From assembly GCA_031385545.1 (NCBI GenBank), contig JANNBN010000129.1, positions 33,062 to 97,061 on the forward strand: a stretch of 64,000 nt of DNA, read 5' to 3'. Below, in pieces: positions 9,480 to 26,878 of this stretch (position 1 is the stretch's first letter; each line of letters begins with the position of its first letter). A program made the position numbers and the translations under genes. The notes below the pieces were generated by a model. It saw nothing but the letters and a program-made list of their open reading frames with translations, did not search any database and was not told where the DNA came from. This DNA is from Acidimicrobiia bacterium. Lineage in GTDB: Bacteria; Actinomycetota; Acidimicrobiia; Acidimicrobiales; JANYDT01.

Positions 9480-10079
9480 CTAGCTGTCGGTCAGGCCGGA
9501 ATCCGAGTTGGGTTCCGAGTCAGGTTCCGAGTCATCGTCAGTCTCGTATTCCAAGTAGTCCTCCGGTCCGCCGTCGAGGTCTCTGCCTTCGCCGCCTGCG
9601 AGGCCCATCACGATGAGTTCAAGCACACCGCTCAGCCAGCCGTACACACCAAGCGCAGGGCGCCGCGGGTCTGTCTCGTCGAGGTCGTCGGGGTCGAGGC
9701 CCTCGTACACGTCGAGTTGCGTGCCGAGTACCAGCCTGATGTCGTTGACGGCACCCATCCAGCCCAGCAACTGTTCGTGGGTGAGCAGCTCCTGGTGTGC
9801 GGTTTCGGACAACAGGGTGAGCGAAGCTCGTTTTGATTCGATCAGGTCTTGGCGCATGAACCGGCGGTATTCGTCTTCCCGCTCGGAGTCCGATTCGCGG
9901 TGGTAAGCCGGTGGGAACAAGCGACGGGTGGACTGCTCGTCGCCCGCTTCGATGACCGTGACGAGTTGCCTGGGAAGGTCAGCGAGGAAGTCACGCGAAT
10001 CGGGGTCGAGACCGACCGCGTAGGTGCCGTCCGCATTCGATTGGAACGGCAGGTTCTTGCGTCGGCGGAGCACGTTCAA
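9480..10079 (-). CDS. DUF2017-family protein (conserved ClpS partner in Actinomycetota)
   Basis: Acidic protein downstream of clpS. TTG start at 10079 overlaps the clpS TGA; GTG 10073 is an alternative. The C-terminus is Asp/Glu/Ser-rich. The rest of the 315-aa ORF upstream is the clpS region read in another frame. Confidence 0.7.
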   Translation of the reverse strand: MNVLRRRKNLPFQSNADGTYAVGLDPDSRDFLADLPRQLVTVIEAGDEQSTRRLFPPAYHRESDSEREDEYRRFMRQDLIESKRASLTLLSETAHQELLTHEQLLGWMGAVNDIRLVLGTQLDVYEGLDPDDLDETDPRRPALGVYGWLSGVLELIVMGLAGGEGRDLDGGPEDYLEYETDDDSEPDSEPNSDSGLTDS

Positions 10080-10396
10080 CTGTCCTGTTCCATGGTGGCC
10101 CAGAGGCCCTTCTCGTGCAGGCGGAAGACATCGAGCTCGGCCTGTTCCCGGGGCGCAGAGTTGACGATTGCCCTGCCCTTTTCGTGCACGTCCATCATCA
10201 GTTTTTCCGCCTTCGAGCGCGGGTAGCCGAACAGCTGCTGCAACACCAGCGTGACGTAGCTCATGAGGTTGATCGGGTCGTTCCATACGATCACCTTCCA
10301 CGGCTGATCCGTGACGACGACGATGTCGGTGTCGGACTCGACCGTCTCGATCGGTGCAGCGGTGGGCATGCGGCATTCTCGCATCGGCTCGGACAT
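10076..10396 (-). CDS. clpS: ATP-dependent Clp protease adaptor ClpS
   Basis: PWKVIVWNDPINLMSYVTLVLQQLFGYPRSKAEKLMMDVHEKGRAIV is the canonical ClpS core. Confidence 0.92.
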   Translation of the reverse strand: MSEPMRECRMPTAAPIETVESDTDIVVVTDQPWKVIVWNDPINLMSYVTLVLQQLFGYPRSKAEKLMMDVHEKGRAIVNSAPREQAELDVFRLHEKGLWATMEQDS

Positions 10397-10474
10397 CTGC
10401 GAAACGCCGACGTGTTCTGTGTCTCACCTCGATGAACGGGAGACGACGAACCCCCGGTAGCCTGGAAAGTTGTT

Positions 10475-11425
10475 ATGCCGCGATTGCGAACCACCCCACT
10501 CGAGCGGACCGCTCGATTGCAGTCCACCGGCGGCCGGATCGGCGAGAAGGCCGGTGCTTACCTGGTCCTGGTCAAACTCAGGGTGGTCGAGCAACTGCTC
10601 ATCACCACGGTGCCGACCATGTTCGTGGCCCAACGGGGTGTGCCGGGTCTGTGGCTGATGCTGGCAACGGTCCTGGGTGGCACCTTCGCGGCTGGAGGGG
10701 CCAACGCCATCAACATGGTGATCGACCGCGACATCGACGCGTTGATGGATCGAACCAAACACCGCCCACTTGTCACAGGTGTGATCACCCCCCGCCATGC
10801 GCTGGTGTTCGCCATCGGGCTCGAAGTGGCCGCCTTCGTCTGGCTCTGGTGGCAGGTCAACCTGCTTTCAGCTGTGCTGGCTGTGGCGGCCTGCCTGTTC
10901 TACGTGTTCGTCTACACGCTGTGGCTGAAGCGCAGCTCGGTCGAGAACATCGTTATCGGCGGTGCGGCGGGCGCTGTGCCGGTACTGATTGGCTGGTCGG
11001 CTGTCACCAATCGCATCGATTGGGCGCCTGTGGTGATGTTCGCTGTCATCTTTGTGTGGACGCCACCTCACTTCTGGGCGCTCGCGGTGAAATACAAAGA
11101 CGACTACGGCAAGGCCGGGGTGCCGATGCTGCCGGTGGTCGCCTCGTTCAAGACCACAGCGACGCGCATTGTCGCCTACACCGTGGCGCTCTGGGCCTTG
11201 TCGATGCTGGTGTGGCCGGTTGCCCAGCTGTCCTGGTTCTACGCCTGTGTGGCTGCAGTGATGGGGGCGATGTTCCTGTTCGTTGCGCTGCGGCTGTACC
11301 GGGTCGGTACATCGGACGCCCAGCCGTCGGTGGTAGCAGGCGAAGCGATGAAGCTATTCGTGTTCTCCAACGTCTATATCTCCGTGTTGTTCATCGCCAT
11401 GGGCGTCGACCAGCTGCTTCGCTGA
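10475..11425 (+). CDS. ctaB: Protoheme IX farnesyltransferase (heme O synthase)
   Basis: UbiA-fold motifs GGANAINMVIDRDIDALMDRTKHRPL and WTPPHFWALA. About 9 TM segments. Confidence 0.92.
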   Translation: MPRLRTTPLERTARLQSTGGRIGEKAGAYLVLVKLRVVEQLLITTVPTMFVAQRGVPGLWLMLATVLGGTFAAGGANAINMVIDRDIDALMDRTKHRPLVTGVITPRHALVFAIGLEVAAFVWLWWQVNLLSAVLAVAACLFYVFVYTLWLKRSSVENIVIGGAAGAVPVLIGWSAVTNRIDWAPVVMFAVIFVWTPPHFWALAVKYKDDYGKAGVPMLPVVASFKTTATRIVAYTVALWALSMLVWPVAQLSWFYACVAAVMGAMFLFVALRLYRVGTSDAQPSVVAGEAMKLFVFSNVYISVLFIAMGVDQLLR

Positions 11426-11609: not shown

Positions 11610-13121
11610 ATGACCCTCACCGCCCCAACGTCTACCAGCCAGGCCGCCGACGCTGCCGTCTTCGGGGTTTCCGACCCCTTCGGCGCAGTCCACGCCGACG
11701 ACTGGGTGGCAACCGTCGACTCCGGCCGTACCGGGCAGCTCCACCTGGGTCTGCTTTCGGCTGTCGTCGCACTTGCCGGAGCGCTCGGCGTGGCTGTCCA
11801 CGGCCAACTGGCCGGATGGTGGATGCTCAGTACATCCGACGCCCGGTTCGACATCGCCTCGTTGTTCGCTCTGCACCAAAACCTGTGGGCGGTATCCATC
11901 GCCATGCCGCTGTGGATCGCGGTCGCAGCGATGGTGGTACCCATCCAGATCGGCGCAACCCGAAGTGCATTTCCCCGGATGGGATCGTTCGCCTTATGGG
12001 GCTGGGTTGTTGGTACATCGCTGTTGATCACGGCCACGCTGGTGGGAGACGGACCCCAGGTTGTCGACCTGGGCGGCAACCTTGCGGTGACCGCCACTGC
12101 TGGCCAGGCACCCCGTGCAACCGACCTTGCTCTCGCAGCCATGATGCTCGTCACGCTGGCGACACTCGCCGGAGCCATCAACCTGGTGGCAACCATCCTC
12201 ACCGAACGAGCACCGGGCACGAAACTCTCGACGATGCGTCCCTTCTCGTGGTCGGTGCTGGTGACCATGACCCTCGCGGTTATCACTACCCCGGTGTTCA
12301 TGGCCGGGTTGTTCCTGCTCTACCTGGACCAGCACTTCGGCGGGCAGTTGTTCGCTTCGGGGGTTGGTGCTGATCGCATCTGGGTCCACGCCATCTGGCT
12401 GATGGGTCGGCCAGAAGCGGTGCTGCTTGCGGTCCCCGCAGTTGCGGCGGTTGCTGACGTCGTTGTCCACAGAACCGGTAAGACGCTGCTCGGCGGCGGC
12501 GCTGCCAACGGTCTGATTGCAGCAGCGGCGGCTTCGTCGCTGCTGCTGTGGACCGGTCGTGAACTGGTTGCCACCACCTCCACACCCCCGTACGCACGCT
12601 GGTGGTACGCCGTTGTGCTGGTGCCACTGTTCATGCTGTTTCTGCTTATCGTCGGGAGCCTTCGCGGTGGCCTCAAACCCGACGTCTCGTTGCTCGGAGC
12701 CGTTGGAATTGTGCTGTCCATCCTGGCCGGTGCCGTTTTCACCATCGCAATCGTGGCGACACCGAACAGCGACATCACCGAGTCCGAGCAGCTCTTCGGA
12801 CGGCTGGGCCTGCCCAACTTGCTCGTGTTCGGGCTGGTGCTCATCGGTGCATTCACCATGGTCGTGGAGCACAGTCGGACGATCTACGGGCGGGCACTTC
12901 CCAAACCGCTTGCCACGCTGGTGCTGCTCGCCATCCTCGGCGGGGTACTGCTCACCGGTGCGGGGCTGACTGCGGGCGTGTTCGGTGGCGGCGACGGCCC
13001 GCACATCGCTGCTGCAATCGGGAAGGCGCTCATTGCTGGCGGCGCCGCGCTGCTCGTGCTCGCACTGCTTGGGTCCCTACGGCCCGACCGTTCCGTCACC
13101 CACCAGGAAGGGGGCCACTGA
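11610..13121 (+). CDS. Heme-copper oxidase subunit I-like membrane protein lacking the CuB/heme a3 ligand set (degenerate paralogue)
   Basis: Aligns by eye to the adjacent CtaD ([11 protein letters not shown] / [34 protein letters not shown] / [48 protein letters not shown] / [25 protein letters not shown]). However GHPEVY is GRPEAV, WAHHMF is WTGRELV, and no HFHYV-type pair was found. RBS GAGGA lies 7 nt before ATG 11610. Intact 503 codons with G/C-rich third positions. Confidence 0.8.
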   Translation: [503 protein letters not shown]

Positions 13122-13750
13122 TGGTCGCTGCATCCCAGCCAAACGGAACAGCCGGAACAGCCGGAACAGCCAGTACTGCCGTTACTGCACGCACGCAGTC
13201 GGGCAATGGAGCACTGTTGGGCGCATTGCTGGCCGTTGCTGCAGGGGTGATGTTCGTGTCGGCCCTCATCGGCGCGTACTTCTCGGTGCGCAACTGGGTA
13301 GGTGTCGGCGATGGTGGCTTCATCCCCGATGCTCTGAAGTTCGACAACTATGCCGGGTTCATGACCATGGTGTCGGGTCTCGCTGCTGCGTTCGCTGCGG
13401 AGTGGGCGCTCGTGTCCGCTCGCCTGCGCAAGAGTCGCTGGGCAACCGCCGGGTACGGGTTGTCCGTATTGTTCATGGTGGGTGCAATCAACTCGGTCTG
13501 GCACATCGGCCAGCGCAGCAGGTTGGCAGCTGGCGAAACGGCCTATGCCGTTCTCTTCTATGCAGTCCTCTCGGCCATGACTCTTTCGCTTATCGTCGGC
13601 ATCATCGCCGCAGTCGTCAATCTGGTCCGGGTCATGGCCGGGCATGTGTGGGGAGACGACCTGCTGGTGGGCCGGGCCGGCAATTGGTTCATCCGGTTTG
13701 CTGCTCTGACAGCAACCATCGGCTTCTTCCTCATCTACACCTACAAGTAA
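13121..13750 (+). CDS. Heme-copper oxidase subunit III-like membrane protein (divergent paralogue)
   Basis: TGATG overlap with the preceding gene. About 5 TM segments. The layout and C-terminal ending (...IGFFLIYTYK) parallel the genuine CtaE (...IFTVVYLIK). The N-terminus has a GTAGTAGTAST low-complexity stretch. Confidence 0.6.
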   Translation: MVAASQPNGTAGTAGTASTAVTARTQSGNGALLGALLAVAAGVMFVSALIGAYFSVRNWVGVGDGGFIPDALKFDNYAGFMTMVSGLAAAFAAEWALVSARLRKSRWATAGYGLSVLFMVGAINSVWHIGQRSRLAAGETAYAVLFYAVLSAMTLSLIVGIIAAVVNLVRVMAGHVWGDDLLVGRAGNWFIRFAALTATIGFFLIYTYK

Positions 13751-13767
13751 GCGACCTGGGGCTAATC

Positions 13768-14505
13768 GTGTTCTCCGCATACACAAAGACGTTCGCCGGG
13801 CTCACCGGTGCGCTGCTCGCTCTCGCGCTCCTGGTCTCGGCCCTTCAGCCCGATCGCCTTGCGGTCACGCTGCTGTTCCTGGCCGCATTCTGCATGGGCG
13901 TTGTCACAGCCGCCGGGCGTGCGGCCACCGGCCACAACGATCGTGTCGCGTTGGTCGGCGCAGCCGCCTCGGCCAATCGCCCGCCACGCAATTCCTATGC
14001 CCCTGCACTTGCTGCCCTGGGTTTTGGTGTCGTCGTTCTTGGTGCCGCGCTCGGTTTCATCGCGTACGCCATTGGCGCGGGCGTCCTCGTATTTGCTGGC
14101 GGCCTGTGGTTGTCGGACGCCTGGCGCGAACACCGTTTGGCCACACCAAAGACCTCGGCCCAGGTCAGTCGGTCGTTCTCCCTCCCGTTCGTGATGCCGC
14201 TGATGTCGATCGCGCTGATCGGGTTCGTGGCCATCAGCTTCTCGCTCGTCTTCTTCTCCTTCGCAGAAAATCGCTCCTGGATCGTCGCAGCTGCTGTCGC
14301 TGTGCTCGTCTTCGGCGGCGCATTCGTGTTGGCGTTCATACCGAAGCAGGGCGGCCGTGCGAAGTTCATAGCGTTGGTTGCTGTTGTTCTGGCTGCTATT
14401 GCCGGGCTCGGAATCGTGGGGCTGGTGCGCGGCGAACCCGAGCACGGCGGTGAACACGGAACCACGGCAGAGAACGGCCAGACCGAAACCCACGCGGAAG
14501 GCTGA
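13768..14505 (+). CDS. Polytopic (~7 TM) membrane protein of unknown family with His/Glu-rich C-terminal tail
   Basis: GTG 13768 lies 18 nt after the previous stop. Hydrophobic Ala/Leu/Val/Gly-rich segments. Tail GEPEHGGEHGTTAENGQTETHAEG. The upstream 261 codons of the tracked ORF are the previous gene read out of frame. Confidence 0.6.
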   Translation: MFSAYTKTFAGLTGALLALALLVSALQPDRLAVTLLFLAAFCMGVVTAAGRAATGHNDRVALVGAAASANRPPRNSYAPALAALGFGVVVLGAALGFIAYAIGAGVLVFAGGLWLSDAWREHRLATPKTSAQVSRSFSLPFVMPLMSIALIGFVAISFSLVFFSFAENRSWIVAAAVAVLVFGGAFVLAFIPKQGGRAKFIALVAVVLAAIAGLGIVGLVRGEPEHGGEHGTTAENGQTETHAEG

Positions 14506-14526
14506 TGTGAGGCATTGCCGTCCGGC

Positions 14527-15072
14527 ATGAACCGCACCCGACTGAGAGTCGCAGCAGCCGCTGCGATTGCCGCTGCGATACTTGTGTTCGGTGCCGTGGT
14601 CGTGCTCGAAGTTGCGTCAGGTTCCACCGGGACGAACGGCCGCGCTGGTTCTTCGTTCTCTCCGCAACTGCCCACGTTCGATCTTCCAAGCGTGCACGAC
14701 GACGGTACCCGGCAGTCTTCGGCGGAGTTCGCCGGGAAGTTGCTGGTGATAAACGTCTTCGACTACACGTGCGTCCCCTGCATCACGGAGCTGCCGATGC
14801 TGGATCGCATCGCATCAGCCAACCCAGACGTTGCCTTCGTGGGCGTCCATTTGATGCTGCAGCGGGCTGAGGCCGAGAAATTTGTCGACCGACTTGGTGT
14901 TCGGTTCCCGGTTGTTTACGACGAAACCGGGGTCTTCTCGACGGCCGTTGTGGCGCTGCCGACCACGGTCTTCGTCGGCACCGACGGTCGCGAAGTCGGG
15001 CGGGTGACTGGCACCATCGCCGAAGCTGACCTGACGGATCGACTGGAGCGACTCCGGGAGGGTATTTCATGA
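14527..15072 (+). CDS. TlpA/ResA-type thiol:disulfide oxidoreductase (membrane-anchored thioredoxin fold)
   Basis: N-terminal anchor RLRVAAAAAIAAAILVFGAVVVL and active site FDYTCVPCITELP (CxxC). Start ambiguous (TTG 14515 or ATG 14527). Confidence 0.8.
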   Translation: MNRTRLRVAAAAAIAAAILVFGAVVVLEVASGSTGTNGRAGSSFSPQLPTFDLPSVHDDGTRQSSAEFAGKLLVINVFDYTCVPCITELPMLDRIASANPDVAFVGVHLMLQRAEAEKFVDRLGVRFPVVYDETGVFSTAVVALPTTVFVGTDGREVGRVTGTIAEADLTDRLERLREGIS

Positions 15073-15128: not shown

Positions 15129-16358
15129 GTGTTTTCTGAGCGACCCCTGTCTGCGCGTCTGAGCGCCCGTGTACGGCGTCTCATCGTCCCCGCAAGCGTG
15201 AAATCCCCGGTGACGAGCCTTCTGGTTCTGTTGCCCCTCGCGTTGGGTGCCTGTGCGTCCGATGCACCGCAGGACGGGTTCCGCGATCCCGAGGGGCCAA
15301 TCCCACGGGCTATCAACCGGGTTGCGCATCCAGCGTTCCTGATCGCCTACATACCGGTCCTGCTATTCGTCTATGGCGTCACCATGTACGCGATGGTCCG
15401 CTATCGGCGAAAAGACGTCGATCATGTCCCGACACAGGTTCACGGCAACAAGGTTGTCGAGATCGTTTCTGTCATCGGTGCGAGCGCACTGCTCTTCGGC
15501 TTGGGTGTTCCAGCGACGATGACCTATTTCGATGTCACCGAACAGAAGAACGACTGCATGCAGATCGCCGTCGTCGGCCATCAGTGGTGGTGGGAATACC
15601 GTTATCCCGCCGAGGGCACCAAGCTCGAAACGTCGTACCCGCGCGACATCCTTGACCCCACCGACGCCGAAGCAGCCAAGGCAGAAGGCCGCGAGCAGCG
15701 AAAGATCTTCGGCATCCCTCGCGACGACCGCCCGGTGGTGGTCAACGCCAACGAGTTGCACATCCCTGAGGGATGCAACGTGCGTCTGAACATCACCTCA
15801 ATGGACGTGATGCACAACTACTGGGTGCCAAAGCTCGCCGGCAAGATCTATGCCATACCCGGCAAGATCAACCTTCTCAACGTCGAGGCCGACAGGGGCC
15901 TGGCCTCGCCCGGTAAGTCGCACTTCATCTACGGGCAGTGTGCCGAGTTCTGCGGTACCTCGCACGCCAACATGCGGTTCAAGGTTGTGGTGCAGACCAA
16001 GGCAGACTTCCAGGAGTGGCTGGCGTCTCAGGCTGCGCCGGCCAAGGCCGCACAAACCGACCTTCAGAAGAAGGGCGAGGCGCTGTTCGCCGGCGGCGCT
16101 GCGTGTTCCACCTGCCACTACCTCGACTCGTCAAAACAGTGGGACGTCACTGTTGATGCCGCCAAGATCGGTCCAAACCTCGCCCACGTCGGTAGCCGGC
16201 AGCACTTTGCCGGCGCTATCGCCCCGCTCGACGAGCGCAATCTCACCGCCTGGCTGCGCAACCCGCAGGAGTTCAAGCCGGGTTCCAAGATGGTCATCCG
16301 TCAACTGAAGAACGACGAGATCGAGGCGCTTGTCGCCTACGTCAAGTCCCTCAAATAG
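15129..16358 (+). CDS. ctaC: Cytochrome c oxidase subunit II with C-terminal cytochrome c domain (caa3-type)
   Basis: Lipobox LALGAC. CuA motif HNYWVP...GQCAEFCGTSHANM. Heme c site CSTCH followed by ...GPNLAHVG and ...MVIRQL. GTG start. Confidence 0.92.
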   Translation: MFSERPLSARLSARVRRLIVPASVKSPVTSLLVLLPLALGACASDAPQDGFRDPEGPIPRAINRVAHPAFLIAYIPVLLFVYGVTMYAMVRYRRKDVDHVPTQVHGNKVVEIVSVIGASALLFGLGVPATMTYFDVTEQKNDCMQIAVVGHQWWWEYRYPAEGTKLETSYPRDILDPTDAEAAKAEGREQRKIFGIPRDDRPVVVNANELHIPEGCNVRLNITSMDVMHNYWVPKLAGKIYAIPGKINLLNVEADRGLASPGKSHFIYGQCAEFCGTSHANMRFKVVVQTKADFQEWLASQAAPAKAAQTDLQKKGEALFAGGAACSTCHYLDSSKQWDVTVDAAKIGPNLAHVGSRQHFAGAIAPLDERNLTAWLRNPQEFKPGSKMVIRQLKNDEIEALVAYVKSLK

Positions 16359-16419
16359 TCCCCGCACGTCGTCAGTCACCCGAATTCACCAGAGCACGGT
16401 TTCGCAGGAGCATCTCGTC

Positions 16420-18405
16420 ATGGCACTCGTTCTCGAACCACCAACCGGCATCAGCCCGGAAGGCGCCACAGCCAAGCCGGCCGGCCCCGGTCTGCTGAGC
16501 CGGCCCCTGGAGACCACCAGGGGCATCATGTCGTGGGTCACCACGGTGGACCACAAGCGCCTTGGCATCATGTACGGCGTTGCGTCCATCTTGTGGTTCG
16601 TGATCGGCGGCATCGAGGCCCTCTTCATCCGCCTGCAGTTGGCGGTGCCGAACGGGTCGGTCATCGGCGCTGACACCTACAACCAGATGTTCACCATGCA
16701 TGCCACCACCATGGTGTTCCTGGTGGTCATGCCGCTTTCGGCTGCGTTCTTCAACTATTTCCTGCCGCTGCAGATCGGTGCGCGCGACGTTGCCTTTCCT
16801 CGCATGAATGCCTTCTCGTGGTGGGGCTACTTCTTTGGTGGCATTTTCATGTATTCCAGCTACTTCCTCGGGGGCTTCCCCGACGGTGGCTGGTTCGGAT
16901 ACGCGCCGAACACGTCGACCACGTTCTCTCCTGGTCACGGCATCGACTTCTGGATCATCGGTCTCCAGATGCTTGGCATCGCGTCCACCGTGTCCGCCGT
17001 CAATTTCATCGTGACCGTGTTCAACATGCGGGCCCCTGGCATGACCCTGTTCCGCATGCCGGTGTTCGCCTGGATGACATTCGTGGCCAGTTTCCTGCTG
17101 CTCTTCGCGATGCCCATCATCACGGTGGCACTGTTCCTGCTCACCTTCGATCGTTCGTACGGTGCGAACTTCTTCAACGTCAGCCAGGGCGGCGAGCCCG
17201 TGCTGTGGCAGCACCTGTTCTGGCTGTTCGGCCACCCCGAGGTGTACATCCTCATCCTGCCCGCCATGGGTATCGTCTCCGAGGTCCTGCCGACCTTTGC
17301 CCGCAAGCCATTGTTCGGCTACCCGGTTGTGGTGTTCTCCGGTATCGCCATCGGGTTCATGGGCTGGGGCGTGTGGGCGCACCATATGTTCGCCGTCGGT
17401 CTCGGTTCAGTTGCGACGGCTGCCTTCGGCGTCAGCACGATGTTCATCGCGGTGCCCACGGGTGTGAAGATCTTCAACTGGGTCGGCACCATTTGGGGCG
17501 GAGCGCTGCGGTTTACGACTGCAATGCTGTTCAGCGTCGGTTTCATCCTGACGTTCGTTATCGGCGGTCTGTCGGGTGTCACCCACTCCCTGGTCGCTTC
17601 CGATGCGCAGCAGACCGACACGTACTACATCGTCGCTCACTTCCACTATGTGCTGTTCGGTGGCGCGCTCATGGGACTGTTCTCCGGTATCTACTACTGG
17701 TACCCCAAGATCTTCGGTCGCCTGCTCGACGAAAAGATCGGCAAGACCCACTGGTTCCTGATGTGGATCGGCACGCATCTCACGTTCGGCCCCATGCACG
17801 TAGTTGGGCTTCAGGGCCAGCCGCGTCGTATGTACCGTTACGACACCGGCATGGGCTTTGACTTCTGGAACTTGGTCGAGACCATTGGCGCGTTCATCAT
17901 TGCGTTGTCGCTACTCGTCTTCTTCTTCAACGTCATCGTGACGCACCGCAAGAAGGGCCAGGTCGTTCCCATCGATCCGTGGGACGCTCGCACCCTTGAA
18001 TGGATGACCGATAACCCGCCGAAGCCACACAACTTTGACATCGTGCCAACCGTGCACAGCGTCGACGAGTTCTGGCATCGTAAGTACGCAGAAGAACCAG
18101 ACACGCACCGCGTGAAGCGGGTTGCAACTGCCGAGCAGGTACTCGAGCACGACTACGTGGATCCGAAATCGATTCACATGCCGTCGCCCTCGTACTGGCC
18201 TCTCGCGCTTGGCTTCTCGCTGTTCGTGCTCGCCTACGGCGCCCTGTACGTCGCTGTACCCGTGATGATCCTCGGGGCAGCAATGGTGATCGGGTCAATG
18301 TTCGGGTGGGCTGTTGAGCCTTCGGCGGAACCACACGACGACGATCATGATCACGGCACCGGCGGGTCCGACGCTCTCGCCCTCACCACCGGCGGATCCC
18401 ACTGA
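16420..18405 (+). CDS. ctaD: Cytochrome c oxidase subunit I (A-type, with 2-TM C-terminal extension)
   Basis: All signature motifs are present: FTMHATTM, WLFGHPEVYILILP, WAHHMF, AHFHYVLFGG. RBS GCAGGAG lies before ATG 16420. C-terminal extension HMPSPSYWPLALGFSLF... and tail EPHDDDHDHGTGG. Confidence 0.95.
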   Translation: MALVLEPPTGISPEGATAKPAGPGLLSRPLETTRGIMSWVTTVDHKRLGIMYGVASILWFVIGGIEALFIRLQLAVPNGSVIGADTYNQMFTMHATTMVFLVVMPLSAAFFNYFLPLQIGARDVAFPRMNAFSWWGYFFGGIFMYSSYFLGGFPDGGWFGYAPNTSTTFSPGHGIDFWIIGLQMLGIASTVSAVNFIVTVFNMRAPGMTLFRMPVFAWMTFVASFLLLFAMPIITVALFLLTFDRSYGANFFNVSQGGEPVLWQHLFWLFGHPEVYILILPAMGIVSEVLPTFARKPLFGYPVVVFSGIAIGFMGWGVWAHHMFAVGLGSVATAAFGVSTMFIAVPTGVKIFNWVGTIWGGALRFTTAMLFSVGFILTFVIGGLSGVTHSLVASDAQQTDTYYIVAHFHYVLFGGALMGLFSGIYYWYPKIFGRLLDEKIGKTHWFLMWIGTHLTFGPMHVVGLQGQPRRMYRYDTGMGFDFWNLVETIGAFIIALSLLVFFFNVIVTHRKKGQVVPIDPWDARTLEWMTDNPPKPHNFDIVPTVHSVDEFWHRKYAEEPDTHRVKRVATAEQVLEHDYVDPKSIHMPSPSYWPLALGFSLFVLAYGALYVAVPVMILGAAMVIGSMFGWAVEPSAEPHDDDHDHGTGGSDALALTTGGSH

Positions 18406-19037
18406 TGAGCACAGCAGCAGTCCACGACGACGCAGCGCACGACGACCACGCACTTGGCGGTCATGGCGCGCACGTCACCGCCACCGGCGTCTCCAACGAG
18501 AAGTTGGGCATGTGGGTCTTCCTCGGCTCCGAGTGCCTCTTGTTCGGTGCGCTCATCGCGACGTACCTCAACTACCGCGGCAAGTCCATCAACGGGCCGT
18601 ACCCGAAGGATGTGTACAACATCCCGTTCACCTCGGCTTCCTCGTTCATCCTGCTCATGAGCTCGCTCACGATGGTGCTCGCGCTTTCTGCGGTCGGGCG
18701 CGGCGACGGCCGTCGTGGCCGTATCTGGCTCATCAGCACGGCACTGCTCGGATCCATCTTCATCGGCGGCCAGATTTACGAGTTCCGTGACTTCTACCAG
18801 GCGAAGGGTCTCGGCCTGTCGACCAACTTGTTCGGTTCCAGCTTCTATGTGCTGACCGGCTTCCACGGCGTGCACGTCACGCTTGGCATCCTGATGCTGT
18901 TCTCGCTGGCGTTTCTGTCCTGGCGGGGGAAAATCACGAAAGCCAACAAGGAGACCGTCGAGATCATCGGTCTCTACTGGCACTTCGTCGACGTGATCTG
19001 GATCGTCATCTTCACCGTCGTCTACCTCATCAAGTAA
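18405..19037 (+). CDS. ctaE: Cytochrome c oxidase subunit III
   Basis: TGATG overlap with ctaD. LGMWVFLGSECLLFGALI..., FYVLTGFHGVHVTLG and YWHFVDVIWIVIF are canonical CoxIII segments. Confidence 0.92.
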   Translation: MSTAAVHDDAAHDDHALGGHGAHVTATGVSNEKLGMWVFLGSECLLFGALIATYLNYRGKSINGPYPKDVYNIPFTSASSFILLMSSLTMVLALSAVGRGDGRRGRIWLISTALLGSIFIGGQIYEFRDFYQAKGLGLSTNLFGSSFYVLTGFHGVHVTLGILMLFSLAFLSWRGKITKANKETVEIIGLYWHFVDVIWIVIFTVVYLIK

Positions 19038-19061
19038 TCAAGTCAGCGAGTAAGACACCCC

Positions 19062-19529
19062 ATGGCATCCAACCGCTACGTCGAACCCGAGTACCACGGC
19101 CCGGCCCTCGACGCACATGACAAGCAGTACATCGGGGTCGGGTTCGGCCTCGCTGTCCTTACTGCTATCGAGGTCGGCCTGTACTTCATCGAGAAGGACG
19201 GGGGCATCTCCGGCGGGCAGAGCAGCTGGATGCTGCTGATCCTCGCGTTCGTCAAGTTCGCCGTTGTCGCCGGTTTCTTCATGCACCTGAAGCTCGACAA
19301 CCCGATCTTCAAGCGACTTTTCGTGATGGGGGCCATCTTGGCCGGCTTCTGTTACGTCGCCGTGCTCACCGCCTTCGGCGTGTTTCACAGGGCGTGGATC
19401 ACCTGGCCTGCCTACCTCGGATTTGCCATCGTCGCGGCGGTGTTGGGATTGCGCGGTTCTCGGGGTGTTGGCGGCCATGATCACGGCCACGCTGATCACG
19501 ACCACGCTGATCACGACCACGCTCACTGA
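19062..19529 (+). CDS. ctaF: caa3-type oxidase subunit IV (COX4_pro family) with His/Asp-repeat C-terminal tail
   Basis: FVKFAVVAGFFMHLKLD is the COX4_pro hallmark. 3-4 TM segments. Tail GGHDHGHADHDHADHDHAH. Confidence 0.8.
   Translation: MASNRYVEPEYHGPALDAHDKQYIGVGFGLAVLTAIEVGLYFIEKDGGISGGQSSWMLLILAFVKFAVVAGFFMHLKLDNPIFKRLFVMGAILAGFCYVAVLTAFGVFHRAWITWPAYLGFAIVAAVLGLRGSRGVGGHDHGHADHDHADHDHAH
19488..19526. repeat. 15-bp tandem repeat encoding the HADHD repeats of the subunit IV tail
   Basis: CACGCTGATCACGAC at 19488-19502 and 19503-19517, then partial CACGCTCAC before the stop. Confidence 0.85.
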
Positions 19530-19605
19530 CTCGGATCGCAGTTATCCCGTGCCGTGATGGCTAGGGGTTTGTGTTGTCCCACCAACCGTTCAAACTGGCA
19601 CGGTG

Positions 19606-20538
19606 ATGCACTCCATTCTCTCTGTTGCCGACCCCGGCCGTGCGTCACTTCCGTGGCGAGTGGAACCCAGCGTGTGGCTCGTGATGGGCGCTGTCATCAC
19701 GTTCTTGTGGTGGGCCGTCACACGGGTCGGCCCTCGCCTTGTCGAACCCGGCCAGCCAGTCGTCACGTCGCGGCAGAAGCAGTGGCTGACTGCCGGGGTC
19801 GTGTCGATGTGGGTGTTTTCCGAGTACCCGATTCACGACATCAGCGAGAAGTACCTCTTCTCCGTGCACATGACACAGCACACGGTGTTCACGCTCGTCT
19901 CCAGCGCATGCTTCCTGATGGGTTCGCCGGACTGGCTGTGGCGATGGGTGATGTCGCACAGAGTCATTGCACAAGTTGCTCGTTTCTGCAGCAAGCCCAT
20001 GGTTGCACTGCTGTTGTTCAATGCCTTGATTGCATACACACACCTCCCGGTGATCGTGCGGCTCTCCACGTCGAACGGGCTCTTTCACTTCGGCGTGCAC
20101 ACGGCACTGTTCGTGGCGTCGCTGTTCATGTGGGTGCCGGTCATCAATCGCACCGAGCTCCTTCCGAAGCTCAAAAAACCCACCAAGATGATCTATCTGT
20201 TTGCCCAGTCGCTGGTGCCAACTGTGCCGGCCTCGTTCCTGACCTTCGCCTCGAAGCCGATGTATAAGCACTACGCCGATGCGCCCCGACTGATCTCGGG
20301 CTTCGATGCGGTGAAAGACCAGCAAACTGCCGCGGTGATCATGAAGTTGGGAGCCGGAACGTTCATCTGGTGCATCGTTGGTTATCTCTTCTATGCATGG
20401 TGGCAGGACAACGAAGCGGGGATCGCCGACGACAATATGCGTCCCATCCCGGCCGAGGGGATGGGCCAAGGAGTCCTGACCTGGGACCGCGTGCAGGTCG
20501 AACTGCAGCGTGCAGCTCCGGTCGATTCCCCCACGTAA
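19606..20538 (+). CDS. ctaG: Cytochrome c oxidase assembly factor CtaG (caa3_CtaG family membrane protein)
   Basis: Polytopic protein following ctaCDEF as in Bacillus. Motifs ...YLFSVHMTQHTVFTL... and ...LFMWVPVIN... fit the caa3_CtaG family as I recall it. Start ATG 19606 or GTG 19603. Confidence 0.7.
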   Translation: MHSILSVADPGRASLPWRVEPSVWLVMGAVITFLWWAVTRVGPRLVEPGQPVVTSRQKQWLTAGVVSMWVFSEYPIHDISEKYLFSVHMTQHTVFTLVSSACFLMGSPDWLWRWVMSHRVIAQVARFCSKPMVALLLFNALIAYTHLPVIVRLSTSNGLFHFGVHTALFVASLFMWVPVINRTELLPKLKKPTKMIYLFAQSLVPTVPASFLTFASKPMYKHYADAPRLISGFDAVKDQQTAAVIMKLGAGTFIWCIVGYLFYAWWQDNEAGIADDNMRPIPAEGMGQGVLTWDRVQVELQRAAPVDSPT

Positions 20539-23693: not shown

Positions 23694-23830
23694 TCCATCG
23701 GCCTGGCCGGTAGTTTCTGATACCAAGGGTTGGATTGCTCAGGGTCCGCCACTTGTGACCAGGCCGTCGTTAGCTTTGCGTTCGGTCTGAACGGGGCGCC
23801 GATCCCGGCTCAGTGGAGCAAGGAGCAACC

Positions 23831-26800
23831 ATGCGTTTCGAAACTCGACGGTTCATCGCGAGGGGCCTCTCGGTTGCCCTCGTCGGGCTGGCCGCCGTGC
23901 CGCTGTACGCCAGGGCGGTTCATGCCCAAACGGGGCCGCTTTCGGGTTTCGTGTTCGGCGATTCCAACCAGAACGGAACGAAGGACGCGGGCGAATCGTT
24001 CCTCCAGGGTGTCGTGGTGACAGCGACCGGTTCCGACGCATCGGTTTCCGCTGCAACGACCGATGTGAACGGTGCGTACCAGTTCACCGGTCTCGCCGCT
24101 TCGTCCTTCCGGATCGCTTTCTCCACCCCTGCCGGTTTGGAGCCAGCCCCACTGGGCCCCGACAACGGTTCATCGGTGCAGTTCGTTGCAGCTGGCGGCA
24201 CTGCGAATACAGCGTTCTCTGACCCGTCGGAGTATTGCCAGAGCAATCCAATCCTGGCCATCGTCTGCTTCTCACAAACCGGCTCGTCGGGCGCAGCGAC
24301 CCAGGCAGCGTTGAAGACCATCGCCTACAACAGCACTGGCATTCCGGCACCTGGGCTTGCGACTCGTCTGACGATGGCCGATGTCGGTTCCACTTTTGGC
24401 CTGGCGTATCACCGGCAGTCGGGCAAGATCTTCCAGGGAGCGTTCATGAAGCGAGGTGTCGCGCTCGGCACCGGTGGTCTCGGCGCGATCTACGCAACCC
24501 CGGCAGCCTCCGGGGCGCCGACGGTGCTTGCCACGATTCCGAATGCGGGCACGGATCCACGGACGAACACCGCCGCACCTAATTATTGGCAGCACGACTC
24601 CGACTCCTTCGCCTCGATCCACAAGCTCGGACTCGGTGACGTCGATCTGTCCAGTGATCAGTCCACCCTGTACGTGGCCAACCTCGCTGACAATGGCGTC
24701 TACAGCGTTGCGATCAACGCGGACGGAACGTCCGGCGGGATCAGCGGTCCGTTGAGCGTCCCCAACCCGACGGCCTGCGCAGCTGGGCAGTTCCACGTGT
24801 TCGGCCTTGGTGTCACCGGTTTACGTGGCCTGGTCGGCGGCGTCTGTACCGGCCCAACCACCGCAGACCTGAAGGGCTACGTCTTCGAGTTCGCTGCGGT
24901 GGGTACTGCTGCGTCCCTGTCCGGTCCCATCCTCACATTCCCCATGAATTATCCGAAAGGTAACGTGCTCGAGTGGTGTGGAACGAGGCCGCCTGGCGAC
25001 GGCGATTACTTGCCCTGGGACACAATCACCTCTGACCTCGACCCCGATGTGCGCCGGTGCTCATCGCAGACGTACAGCCTTGTGGCACCACAAGCATCCA
25101 TGACCGACTTGCAGGTGACAGACGCGGGCGACCTCGTTCTCGGCTTCCGGGATCGCTTCGGCGACCAGACCGGATACGGCTTACGGTCCATGAACCTTCT
25201 CGACGTCGGCCTGTACGAAGGCATGTCCGGGGGTGACGTTCTGTTGGCCTGCAGGTCAGGTTCGACTTGGCTGCTCGAATCCAACGGCGTATGCGGTGGA
25301 CGTACCGGAGCTGGACCTGGGAACGCCGAAGGCCCCGGAGGAGGCGAGTTCTTCAGCGGTGAGCAGTTCACCGGGACACACGACGAAACGGCGCTCGGAT
25401 CTCTGGTCCGGGTCCCCGGGAAGGGCGAGGTTGTTGCCTCGGTTTACGACGTTTCGACAACCTACCAACAAGGGACCATTCGCCTTGCGGACAGCAACGG
25501 GGCTGTGTCCGGACTGACCGAGATCGCGCCCGACGCAGGTAGTGGCAACGGACCATTCGGAAAATCCAACGGGCTCGGCGACATGGAGGCCTTGTGTGAT
25601 CAGGCGCCGGTTGAAATCGGCAATCGTGTCTGGCTGGACGCGAACCGAGACGGGCAGCAGAATCCCGCTGAGGTCGGCATCGACGGCGTTGCTGTTGAAC
25701 TCTGGAAGGCAGGCGTGAAGGTCGGCGATGCGACAACCGGCGGCGGCGTCTATCGGTTCAACGCGACCAATGTCTCCGGCGGAGTTCTGCCGAACATGGA
25801 CTACGAAGTCCGGATTCCCAACGCCTCGGGTGCTGGGTTGCAGGCACCCCTTGCCAATCTGACGCTCACAGGACCGAACGCCGGCGCCGATACGTCTGAC
25901 TCGGACGCAACGGCCAGCGCGACGAACGCTGTGATTCCGGTAGCTGCGTCGTCCATCGCCCGCTCCGGCCAGAACAACCACACCTTTGACGTTGGCTTTG
26001 CGCCTGTCTTCGCGCTTGGGAACAGGGTCTTCCTGGACGATGGTGCTGGCGGCGGCATCGCCGGCGACGGAAAGCAGAACGGTGGAGAAGTCGGGATTGC
26101 CAACGTCACGCTGAAGCTATGTGGTGCGGACGGTGCTGGCAGTCCAACAGGTGCCGCGCTTGGCACCACGACGACCGACAGTTTCGGCTACTACCGGTTC
26201 GACGGCTTGGTGGCCGGGACGTACGTGGTGGTCGTCGATGTGGCTGGTTCGGCAGGTCTCGGCAACTTGCTATCGAGCGTCGGCTCTTCTGACCCCGAGT
26301 CCGGTGTCGACCGAGATGACAGCGGGAAAGATGCACTACTGCCTGCGGGTTCATCCTGTTCTGGTGGCATCGCTAGCGCGCCGGTCATCCTCGGCCCAAC
26401 AGCAGCCGAACCGACCGGCGAGACGGACAAGTCGGCGGTCCCTGATGTCCAGACGGATCCGTACAGCAACCTGACTGTCGATTTCGGCTTCGTGACCAGG
26501 CTGACTCCAACGCCGACCACGCCAGGGGCAACGACGATCAACCTGACCCCGAACCCGAACCCGGTTGCAGCGGCACCGGCTGCACCGACGACGGTTGCGC
26601 CAACGGCCGTTGCGCCGTCGACTGCTGCACCGACCACGGTTGTGTCGACCACGGTGGCACCGGTCGCCCCGACGACTACCCCACCGCCGGCGACGGTTGT
26701 CACCGTTGACCCGGCTCCTCCTGTCGTCGACATTGAAGCGGACATCGCATTGACAGGAGCAAATGATGACCAACTCGTCATGCTGTCGTTCTTCCTGATG

Positions 26801-26878
26801 TTGCTGGGTGCTGCGCTTTGGTTCATCGGTGGCCGGTCCGGCGGGTCGCGGGTCGCCACATCAACTCGGAAGCGCTGA
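23831..26878 (+). CDS. Large secreted, probably cell-wall-anchored surface protein with SdrD-B/Cna-B-like repeats
   Basis: RBS AGGAGC before ATG 23831. Signal peptide MRFETRRFIARGLSVALVGLAAVPLYARAVHAQ. At least three SdrD-B-like modules (GFVFGDSNQNGTKDAGE...; IGNRVWLDANRDGQQNPAE...; LGNRVFLDDGAGGG...YYRFDGLVAGTYVV). Pro/Thr/Ala/Val linker. C-terminal IALTG + TM + RSGGSRVATSTRKR sorting-signal architecture. Confidence 0.8.
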   Translation: MRFETRRFIARGLSVALVGLAAVPLYARAVHAQTGPLSGFVFGDSNQNGTKDAGESFLQGVVVTATGSDASVSAATTDVNGAYQFTGLAASSFRIAFSTPAGLEPAPLGPDNGSSVQFVAAGGTANTAFSDPSEYCQSNPILAIVCFSQTGSSGAATQAALKTIAYNSTGIPAPGLATRLTMADVGSTFGLAYHRQSGKIFQGAFMKRGVALGTGGLGAIYATPAASGAPTVLATIPNAGTDPRTNTAAPNYWQHDSDSFASIHKLGLGDVDLSSDQSTLYVANLADNGVYSVAINADGTSGGISGPLSVPNPTACAAGQFHVFGLGVTGLRGLVGGVCTGPTTADLKGYVFEFAAVGTAASLSGPILTFPMNYPKGNVLEWCGTRPPGDGDYLPWDTITSDLDPDVRRCSSQTYSLVAPQASMTDLQVTDAGDLVLGFRDRFGDQTGYGLRSMNLLDVGLYEGMSGGDVLLACRSGSTWLLESNGVCGGRTGAGPGNAEGPGGGEFFSGEQFTGTHDETALGSLVRVPGKGEVVASVYDVSTTYQQGTIRLADSNGAVSGLTEIAPDAGSGNGPFGKSNGLGDMEALCDQAPVEIGNRVWLDANRDGQQNPAEVGIDGVAVELWKAGVKVGDATTGGGVYRFNATNVSGGVLPNMDYEVRIPNASGAGLQAPLANLTLTGPNAGADTSDSDATASATNAVIPVAASSIARSGQNNHTFDVGFAPVFALGNRVFLDDGAGGGIAGDGKQNGGEVGIANVTLKLCGADGAGSPTGAALGTTTTDSFGYYRFDGLVAGTYVVVVDVAGSAGLGNLLSSVGSSDPESGVDRDDSGKDALLPAGSSCSGGIASAPVILGPTAAEPTGETDKSAVPDVQTDPYSNLTVDFGFVTRLTPTPTTPGATTINLTPNPNPVAAAPAAPTTVAPTAVAPSTAAPTTVVSTTVAPVAPTTTPPPATVVTVDPAPPVVDIEADIALTGANDDQLVMLSFFLMLLGAALWFIGGRSGGSRVATSTRKR

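Follow-up and report, generated by a model that had tools for sequence, protein, structure and literature searches.

What do three genes that resemble the core of a cytochrome c oxidase do once nearly all of the residues that hold its metals are gone? The question arises at positions 11610 to 14505 of an Acidimicrobiia bacterium contig (JANNBN010000129.1), within a 64-kb window (the whole stretch of DNA that was analysed). Three membrane-protein genes lie there between ctaB, encoding haem O synthase, and a redoxin gene followed by ctaC-D-E-F-G. A sequence-only reading of the window had proposed this arrangement, and all three open reading frames (ORFs) were confirmed on the + strand. Our analysis points to a pseudo-enzyme branch of the haem-copper oxidase superfamily. 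The genes are labelled as follows.

11610-13121, + strand: P1 (CtaD′), 503 residues, 12-helix COX1 homologue (Pfam COX1)
13121-13750, + strand: P2 (CtaE′), 209 residues, COX3-like and of five-helix CtaE size (family profile and NCBIfam)
13768-14505, + strand: P3 (CtaF′-like), 245 residues, 7 predicted helices (family profile against CtaF)

The three subunits and their missing ligands

P1 matched Pfam COX1 (PF00115) with an E value of 1.8e-30 and 106.6 bits (cutoff, 34.8) over profile positions 5-399 of 436; judged by this score, the match is far beyond chance. The top NCBIfam model was actinobacterial aa3 subunit I, at 137.9 bits (equivalog cutoff, 880). An AlphaFold 2 (AF2) model computed with 34 family members contained twelve long helices (mean predicted local distance difference test [pLDDT] score, 83; predicted template modelling [TM] score, 0.86). 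Foldseek placed M. tuberculosis CtaD first (8hcr_F; TM, 0.76; 22% identity), and TM values against A-family subunit I structures ranged from 0.71 to 0.78. The identity of P1 as a genuine, intact COX1 homologue is firm.

Metal ligands were tabulated after aligning P1 with 60, then ~40, homologues, with the window's own CtaD, which has all six ligand His residues and the active-site Tyr, as the reference. Only 1 of the 6 His residues is kept in P1, the helix-II haem a ligand (His89, in ALHQN). GHPEVY reads GRPEAV, which replaces the first copper B (CuB) His with Arg and the cross-linked Tyr with Val; WAHHMF reads WTGREL, so that the CuB His pair becomes Gly and Arg; and AHFHYV reads LGLPNLL, with Leu for the haem a3 His and Asn for the helix-X haem a His. 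The haem-propionate Arg pair is also absent. Every segment that the sequence-only reading had quoted as shared between P1 and the neighbouring CtaD was found in the MAFFT alignment, and its hand alignment, by which the catalytic signature was gone, proved correct.

The proton pathways fared no better. At the D-channel positions D132 is Arg, N121 is Ala and N139 is Gly; at the K-channel positions both T359 and K362 are Leu. E286, the Glu of the HPEVY motif, is the sole D- or K-channel position kept. With these residues replaced by Arg, Ala, Gly or Leu, a repurposed ion conduit, which had been suggested earlier, draws no support from the known pathways and was rejected in that form. On its residues, neither oxygen reduction nor proton pumping of a known kind is possible for P1. 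Nearly all copper- and haem-holding residues are lost, and therefore the triad must do something other than reduce oxygen.

Other positions are held fixed. The P1 family has invariants that do not occur in canonical COX1: an Arg each at the first CuB His and at the D132 position, and His242 within an LDQHFGG loop; RPE/D is likewise an invariant motif. Helices IV-VI, with the loops next to them, are somewhat better conserved than helices IX-XII.

For P2 and P3, pairwise BLASTP was uninformative (P2 against CtaE, E=0.85; P3 against CtaF, CtaC, the CtaD C terminus and others) on these hydrophobic sequences, and profile methods were needed. P2 alone did not match Pfam COX3 (PF00510) and reached 23 bits (E=7.7e-5; cutoff, 190) against its best NCBIfam model, aa3_CtaE_Actin. 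A family profile of nine orthologues (A5) matched solved COX3 chains with E=1.5e-20 and M. tuberculosis CtaE, over its full length, with E=1.2e-19; hhalign gave 96.4% probability between the P2 family and the organism's own CtaE family, and distant P2 orthologues (contigs L007 and L011) passed the Pfam COX3 cutoff with E=1e-19. By profile and transitivity, P2 is a COX3/CtaE homologue. The resemblance to CtaE that had been read by eye is thus borne out at the profile level, and the PF00510 comparison divides: the single protein fails it, while the family profile and the orthologues match COX3.

The third gene had been read as belonging to no recognised family, an assessment that we revise. A profile of 16 P3 orthologues (A2) matched CtaF in 8hcr_H (E=6.9e-5; 122 of 139 residues, 5-126) and in 6adq_H (E=1.7e-3), and matched the first two COX3 helices more weakly. 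Individually, 5 of the 16 members matched Pfam Cyt_c_ox_IV (PF12270), at best with E=6e-5 and 23.6 bits (cutoff, 26.9); the window P3 alone did not match PF12270. Its AF2 model, of low confidence (pLDDT, 49), has 7 long helices, in a layout of four CtaF-like helices followed by three extra ones. The profile matches make it likely, rather than proven, that the four N-terminal helices are related to actinobacterial subunit IV (CtaF).

Beyond its last helix, the window P3 ends in a 25-residue His/Glu-rich tail (~14430-14502), GEPEHGGEHGTTAENGQTETHAEG, which would lie outside the cell given the odd (seven) helix count and the topology assumed for CtaF. A GER-x-F/I-x-His-rich linker follows the last helix in all P3 members. 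What comes after it differs among relatives: a C-terminal Cupredoxin_1 domain is present in 6 of the 16 aligned orthologues (L007-L011 and P0078/L018) and, by direct reading, in L017 and L022. The domain carries a full type-1 copper ligand set, His in FHNxAVY and Cys, His and Met in CDFHPxM; by alignment and by Pfam, both the domain and its four ligands are absent from the window P3. Homologues that lack the cupredoxin end in His/Glu/Ser-rich tails, with four GHSDT repeats in L006:7317-8168, and such His-rich tails could bind metal. The cupredoxin-bearing homologues consist of a seven-helix CtaF-like anchor fused to a blue-copper domain and are annotated only as "plastocyanin" or "hypothetical":

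L007:9978-10964
L008:3904-4905
L009:4539-5549
L010:5163-6164
L011:10225-11235
L017:10142-11161
L018:8001-9044
L022:10346-11338

Gene order and selective constraint

On its 3′ side, past a redoxin gene, the module is followed by a genuine caa3-type oxidase cluster, ctaC-D-E-F-G (15129-20538, + strand). The surrounding genes are as follows.

9480-10076, - strand: DUF2017 protein (Pfam DUF2017, E=2e-27)
10076-10396, - strand: ClpS (Pfam ClpS, E=2e-22)
10475-11425, + strand: ctaB, haem O synthase of the UbiA family (Pfam UbiA, E=9.5e-67)
14515-15072, + strand: TlpA/ResA-type membrane-anchored thiol-disulfide oxidoreductase with a CVPC motif (Pfam Redoxin, E=3.8e-11)
15129-16358, + strand: ctaC, COX2 with a fused cytochrome c domain (Pfam)
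16420-18405, + strand: ctaD, genuine subunit I (Pfam; ligand table fully canonical)
18405-19037, + strand: ctaE, COX3 (Pfam)
19062-19529, + strand: ctaF, COX4_pro type (Pfam)
19603-20538, + strand: ctaG, Caa3_CtaG (Pfam)

P1 starts with ATG, with GAGGA 7 nucleotides upstream. The overlap of the P1 stop and P2 start codons, TGATG, was verified in the sequence as previously described; the ctaD stop and ctaE start likewise share one coordinate. P3 had been thought to follow P2 immediately. With GTA as the codon at 13747, the start was corrected to GTG at 13768, where an identical 245-residue database protein (P0061) also begins. The redoxin is assigned to the thioredoxin fold by its Pfam match, and its CVPC (CxxC) motif and hydrophobic N terminus are readable in the sequence; in NCBIfam it scores below the curated cutoffs of both ResA (E=1.8e-13) and TlpA (E=4e-12). 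A promoter and terminator scan of 10-21 kb returned no promoters and only intragenic terminator-like sites, and operon boundaries at the locus are taken from gene spacing.

The order of these genes was compared in 19 related contigs, which come without exception from metagenome-assembled genomes (MAGs) or metagenomes of uncultured Acidimicrobiia, Acidimicrobiales or unclassified Actinomycetota; L018 is nearly the same as L019, and L014/L015 and L022/L023 are nearly the same where they overlap. In 18 of these contigs the gene next upstream of the P1 homologue is ctaB; the remaining contig begins inside the module. P2 and P3 are present in every contig that reaches beyond P1. All distinct contigs that reach past the module (16/16) continue into the redoxin gene and/or ctaC(DEFG), and the synteny of the triad is conserved; in most related contigs the redoxin gene stands between P3 and ctaC. 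ClpS and DUF2017 are found upstream wherever a contig reaches far enough, often with a divergent ctaA (the pair precedes ctaA/ctaB in L014, L016, L017, L018 and L022). The P1/P2 stop-start overlap is also conserved among relatives, which suggests translational coupling and a stoichiometric complex.

Selection was estimated as the ratio of nonsynonymous to synonymous substitution rates (dN/dS) between the window and the close relatives L001 and L003 (dS ~1) and a third relative, L002; because dS is near saturation, the following ratios are rough.

P1: 0.056-0.094
P2: 0.095-0.111
P3: 0.062-0.184
ctaC: 0.08
ctaD: 0.03
ctaF: 0.08-0.09
ctaG: 0.07

The triad is thus constrained to a degree similar to ctaC, ctaF and ctaG. 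These ratios bear directly on whether the module is a decaying duplicate of oxidase genes, with pseudogenes in the making. Such decay would fit the loss of nearly all catalytic residues and the faster evolution of P1 than of genuine CtaD (90% against 95% identity to L001, and ~32% against 63% to L011). A functionless duplicate should not, however, retain dN/dS values of 0.06-0.18 at dS ~1 or more or uninterrupted ORFs in 19 of 19 related contigs, nor should motifs, gene order and translational coupling have been kept while P1 identity fell from 90% to ~30% across the synteny set (genuine CtaD stays at ≥63%). We consider decay effectively refuted and its probability very small, in agreement with the earlier view that the genes are maintained.

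Several features around the module were recorded alongside. ctaA, encoding haem A synthase, was looked for across the whole 64-kb window, including the ClpS/ctaB gap (10396-10475), and was not found; in L010, L011, L014, L017, L018 and L022 it sits divergently between ClpS and ctaB. It appears that ctaA has moved or been lost from this position in the lineages with the most degenerate P1. The C-terminal ~100 residues of genuine CtaD (18090-18405) form a two-helix extension, starting PSPSYWPL. In alignment it corresponds to helices 13-14 of the Thermus caa3 I+III fusion (2yev_A), which derive from subunit III; COX3 is therefore divided, in the functional oxidase, between CtaD and a five-helix CtaE. 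The motif type of this extension, SPWPL ... W-R-E-H, recurs in helices 3-4 of the P3 family. Further downstream, at 23813-26878 (+ strand), a 1,021-residue protein combines three SdrD B-like domains with Pro/Thr-rich linkers and has a hydrophobic anchor at its C terminus; it probably sits on the cell surface and is unrelated to the oxidase module. The remainder of the window is ordinary chromosome.

Relatives with graded ligand loss

A full scan of 1.84 billion representative proteins brought up 32 with E≤1e-30. Of the 149 best matches in that scan, no fewer than 37 carry Arg at the first CuB position, and ~30 more are ligand-poor COX1-like forms of other kinds. A second search, with the less degenerate orthologue from L007, returned 439 clusters at E≤1e-40. 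In the closest of these (the best 118 of the 439), the first CuB His is Arg in 118/118 and a full CuB site occurs in 0/118; all three haem His residues are kept in ~84 of the 118, the remainder lacking only the haem a3 His, and 101 retain the active-site Tyr. Arg occupies the first CuB position in the window and in L007-L011 as well, and Thr or Gln is found there in divergent branches (L022, P0136). Members of the clade share the gene triad and its position, lack the channel residues and usually have Arg at the D132 position. The haem ligands and the P3 cupredoxin are distributed as follows.

L007-L011: three haem His, cupredoxin on P3
L018 and L022: low-spin haem His pair, cupredoxin on P3
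L014: low-spin haem His pair, no cupredoxin on P3
L017: helix-II His only, cupredoxin on P3
Window clade: helix-II His only, no cupredoxin on P3
L016: no haem His, no cupredoxin on P3

His89 is kept in every member of the window's own clade (P0001-P0021). In the sister branches P0022-P0028 and L016 the helix-II His is lost and the module is retained. In a rough neighbour-joining (NJ) tree, which carries no support values, all ligand-deficient proteins form one clade separate from the caa3 CtaD clade; branches are shortest for the three-His forms, and the window clade falls among the forms with 0 or 1 His. On these comparisons, the window form is the most degenerate end of a large clade and not an oddity of one genome.

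Where the module came from is suggested by its less diverged members. The L007 P1 orthologue scores 304 bits against mycobacterial CtaD compared with ~254-258 bits against the adjacent caa3 CtaD; because of these scores and the CtaE_Actin and CtaF affinities of the other two subunits, descent from the actinobacterial aa3 core, rather than recent copying of the neighbour, is suggested. A recent tandem copy of the adjacent ctaD was considered and is unlikely, the module being more like mycobacterial-type CtaD/E/F and the two groups of proteins occupying separate clades in the NJ tree.

Two groups met in these searches deserve mention in their own right. L007:7788-9383 and ~118 related clusters (P0237-P0354) make up a COX1 group with Arg for the first CuB His, which may be an undescribed family of two-haem enzymes lacking CuB. 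The other comprises P0136, P0137, P0138, P0148, ~25 other representatives and L021, COX1-like proteins of ~530-560 residues that have lost most ligands and carry Gln or Thr instead of Arg/His at CuB positions; one of this type, P0104 (L022), sits in the same cta context, and the contigs of the others are short.

What the triad may do

Database and literature comparisons bear out the earlier statement that no function has been described for such a module: Pfam and NCBIfam give generic COX1 or sub-threshold oxidase matches only, and no characterised family explains it. No description of a COX1 family without CuB or without all ligands was found in the literature searched, including a 2024 survey of haem-copper oxidase families (PMC11214002) and a paper on cytochrome oxidase origins (PMC8239418), an earlier mention elsewhere being possible.

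The closest known system is the actinobacterial aa3 oxidase core (Mycobacterium/Corynebacterium CtaD, CtaE and CtaF; PDB 8hcr, 6adq and 7q21), which shares the folds of P1 and P2 and probably that of the first four helices of P3. P1 is nearest to mycobacterial CtaD by fold and by profile, the P2 profile spans the whole of M. tuberculosis CtaE and, in the weaker family-profile match, helices 1-4 of P3 align to the whole of CtaF. Unlike that core, the triad has no CuB ligands, one of three haem ligands, no Tyr and no D or K channel, and it lacks its own CuA subunit (CtaC); P3 is longer by three helices and in relatives also bears a type-1 cupredoxin; and a separate caa3 oxidase, fully canonical, is encoded in the same cluster. 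Members of the wider clade differ from the window form in mostly keeping the low-spin haem His pair and in often carrying the blue-copper domain on the third subunit, and they may still be redox proteins.

Non-catalytic paralogous partners with demonstrated roles and association are known elsewhere, as CydB relative to CydA in cytochrome bd and NifEN relative to NifDK. The triad resembles them as a catalytic-subunit duplicate that lacks cofactor ligands and is retained beside the active enzyme. It differs in that the whole three-subunit set is duplicated, and in that association and role are here proposals.

Membrane-bound cupredoxins ("Cup") occur in oxidase gene clusters (PMC8239418). Like these and like sulfocyanin (SoxE), the third subunit of relatives carries a membrane-anchored type-1 cupredoxin inside an oxidase cluster, and its domain gives weak Pfam SoxE matches; unlike them, its anchor is a seven-helix CtaF-like domain, not a single helix, and the window P3 has no cupredoxin.

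We propose, at roughly even chances of being right, that the triad is a redox-dead CtaD′/CtaE′/CtaF′ subcomplex working through contacts between its proteins and those of the caa3 oxidase. Loss of the CuB site would have come first, in the common ancestor of the clade; the haem a3 ligand, the second ligand of haem a and the blue-copper domain on the third subunit would then have disappeared in different branches, and in the window branch a single His is all that remains. The three proteins would most likely still assemble into an oxidase-shaped membrane body, without electron transfer or proton pumping via known pathways. Such a body might work by protein-protein, possibly lipid, contacts with the neighbouring caa3 oxidase, either as a stoichiometric, permanent structural partner in a respiratory supercomplex or as a scaffold during oxidase assembly. 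Architecture, position and constraint persist with 3, 2, 1 or 0 haem His residues and with or without the cupredoxin, and the function in the window lineage is therefore independent of these centres and of the known proton channels; strict linkage to ctaB, the redoxin gene and ctaCDEFG makes the caa3 oxidase the likely partner. Homology, the loss of ligands, conservation, gene order and purifying selection are established by the analysis; that the proteins form a complex, with which partner and to what end, we infer.

Several points weigh against a redox-dead subcomplex. Both haem sites and the type-1 copper domain are kept in most of the clade, which makes a redox role in the ancestor probable. 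Since His89, His242 and His260 are conserved, some cofactor chemistry that has escaped recognition might survive in the window form. The homology of P3 to CtaF is weak (E ~1e-4 to 1e-5, under the Pfam gathering score) and its model is poor. An assembly scaffold and a permanent structural subunit are not told apart by these data, and all carriers are uncultured MAGs, with no cultured carrier identified among the related contigs and clusters. In a more specific version of the proposal, the triad and its relatives would be a branch of the superfamily, not met in the literature searched, in which no full CuB site was seen. The less degenerate members would be enzymes with two haems and an Arg/Tyr site, supplied by a blue-copper subunit of their own, and the ligand-less window form would be an obligatory scaffold for the caa3 oxidase or supercomplex; we put this forward tentatively and think it rather unlikely.

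Two other roles would leave the triad a chemistry of its own. By analogy with NifEN, it could be a cofactor-handling scaffold that holds haem O/A (at His89) or copper (at the P3 tail) transiently and passes it to CtaD or CtaC, together with CtaB, the redoxin and CtaG. The constant location of the module between ctaB (plus ctaA in many relatives) and redoxin/ctaC would suit this role, as would the conservation of His89 throughout P0001-P0021 and the His-rich P3 tails wherever the cupredoxin is missing, the four repeats of L006 among them. Yet a single His makes a poor haem site, P0022-P0028 and L016 keep the module without even His89, and the type-1 ligand set of relatives (His, Cys, His and Met) is what an electron carrier, rather than a copper chaperone, typically has. 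We think cofactor handling unlikely. A new enzyme or transporter activity unrelated to oxygen reduction, with a site around the invariant Arg residues and the LDQHFGG loop, seems somewhat less probable still. It would account for the family-specific invariants (both Arg residues and His242) and for the strong purifying selection, and there is a precedent in PsbA-like ChlF, a catalytic-subunit paralogue that gained new chemistry. However, non-polar or basic residues stand in place of all known proton pathways, neither a substrate nor a cofactor could be suggested from the family, and strict co-location with the caa3 genes argues for a role linked to that oxidase.

The haem-CuB centre is what defines the haem-copper oxidases. 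In this module a whole set of core subunits survives under strong selection with that centre missing, and a working oxidase is always encoded next to it. The finding is of solid interest for bioenergetics, within the limits set by uncultured hosts and a function that is proposed. If the triad is a scaffold or structural partner of the caa3 oxidase, it would add a step in oxidase biogenesis or supercomplex formation beyond the known factors (CtaA/B, Sco, PCuAC, TlpA, CtaG and Surf1); were the scaffold obligatory, it would represent a new class of biogenesis or structural factor derived from the enzyme itself. P1-like proteins are annotated in source databases as "cytochrome c oxidase subunit I" or "cbb3-type cytochrome c oxidase subunit I", and such automatic labels would inflate estimates of aerobic capacity in metagenomes of Acidimicrobiia and related soil and freshwater Actinomycetota. 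The graded series from 3 to 2, 1 and 0 haem ligands, with or without the blue-copper domain, offers a natural experiment in the passage from redox enzyme to pseudo-enzyme.

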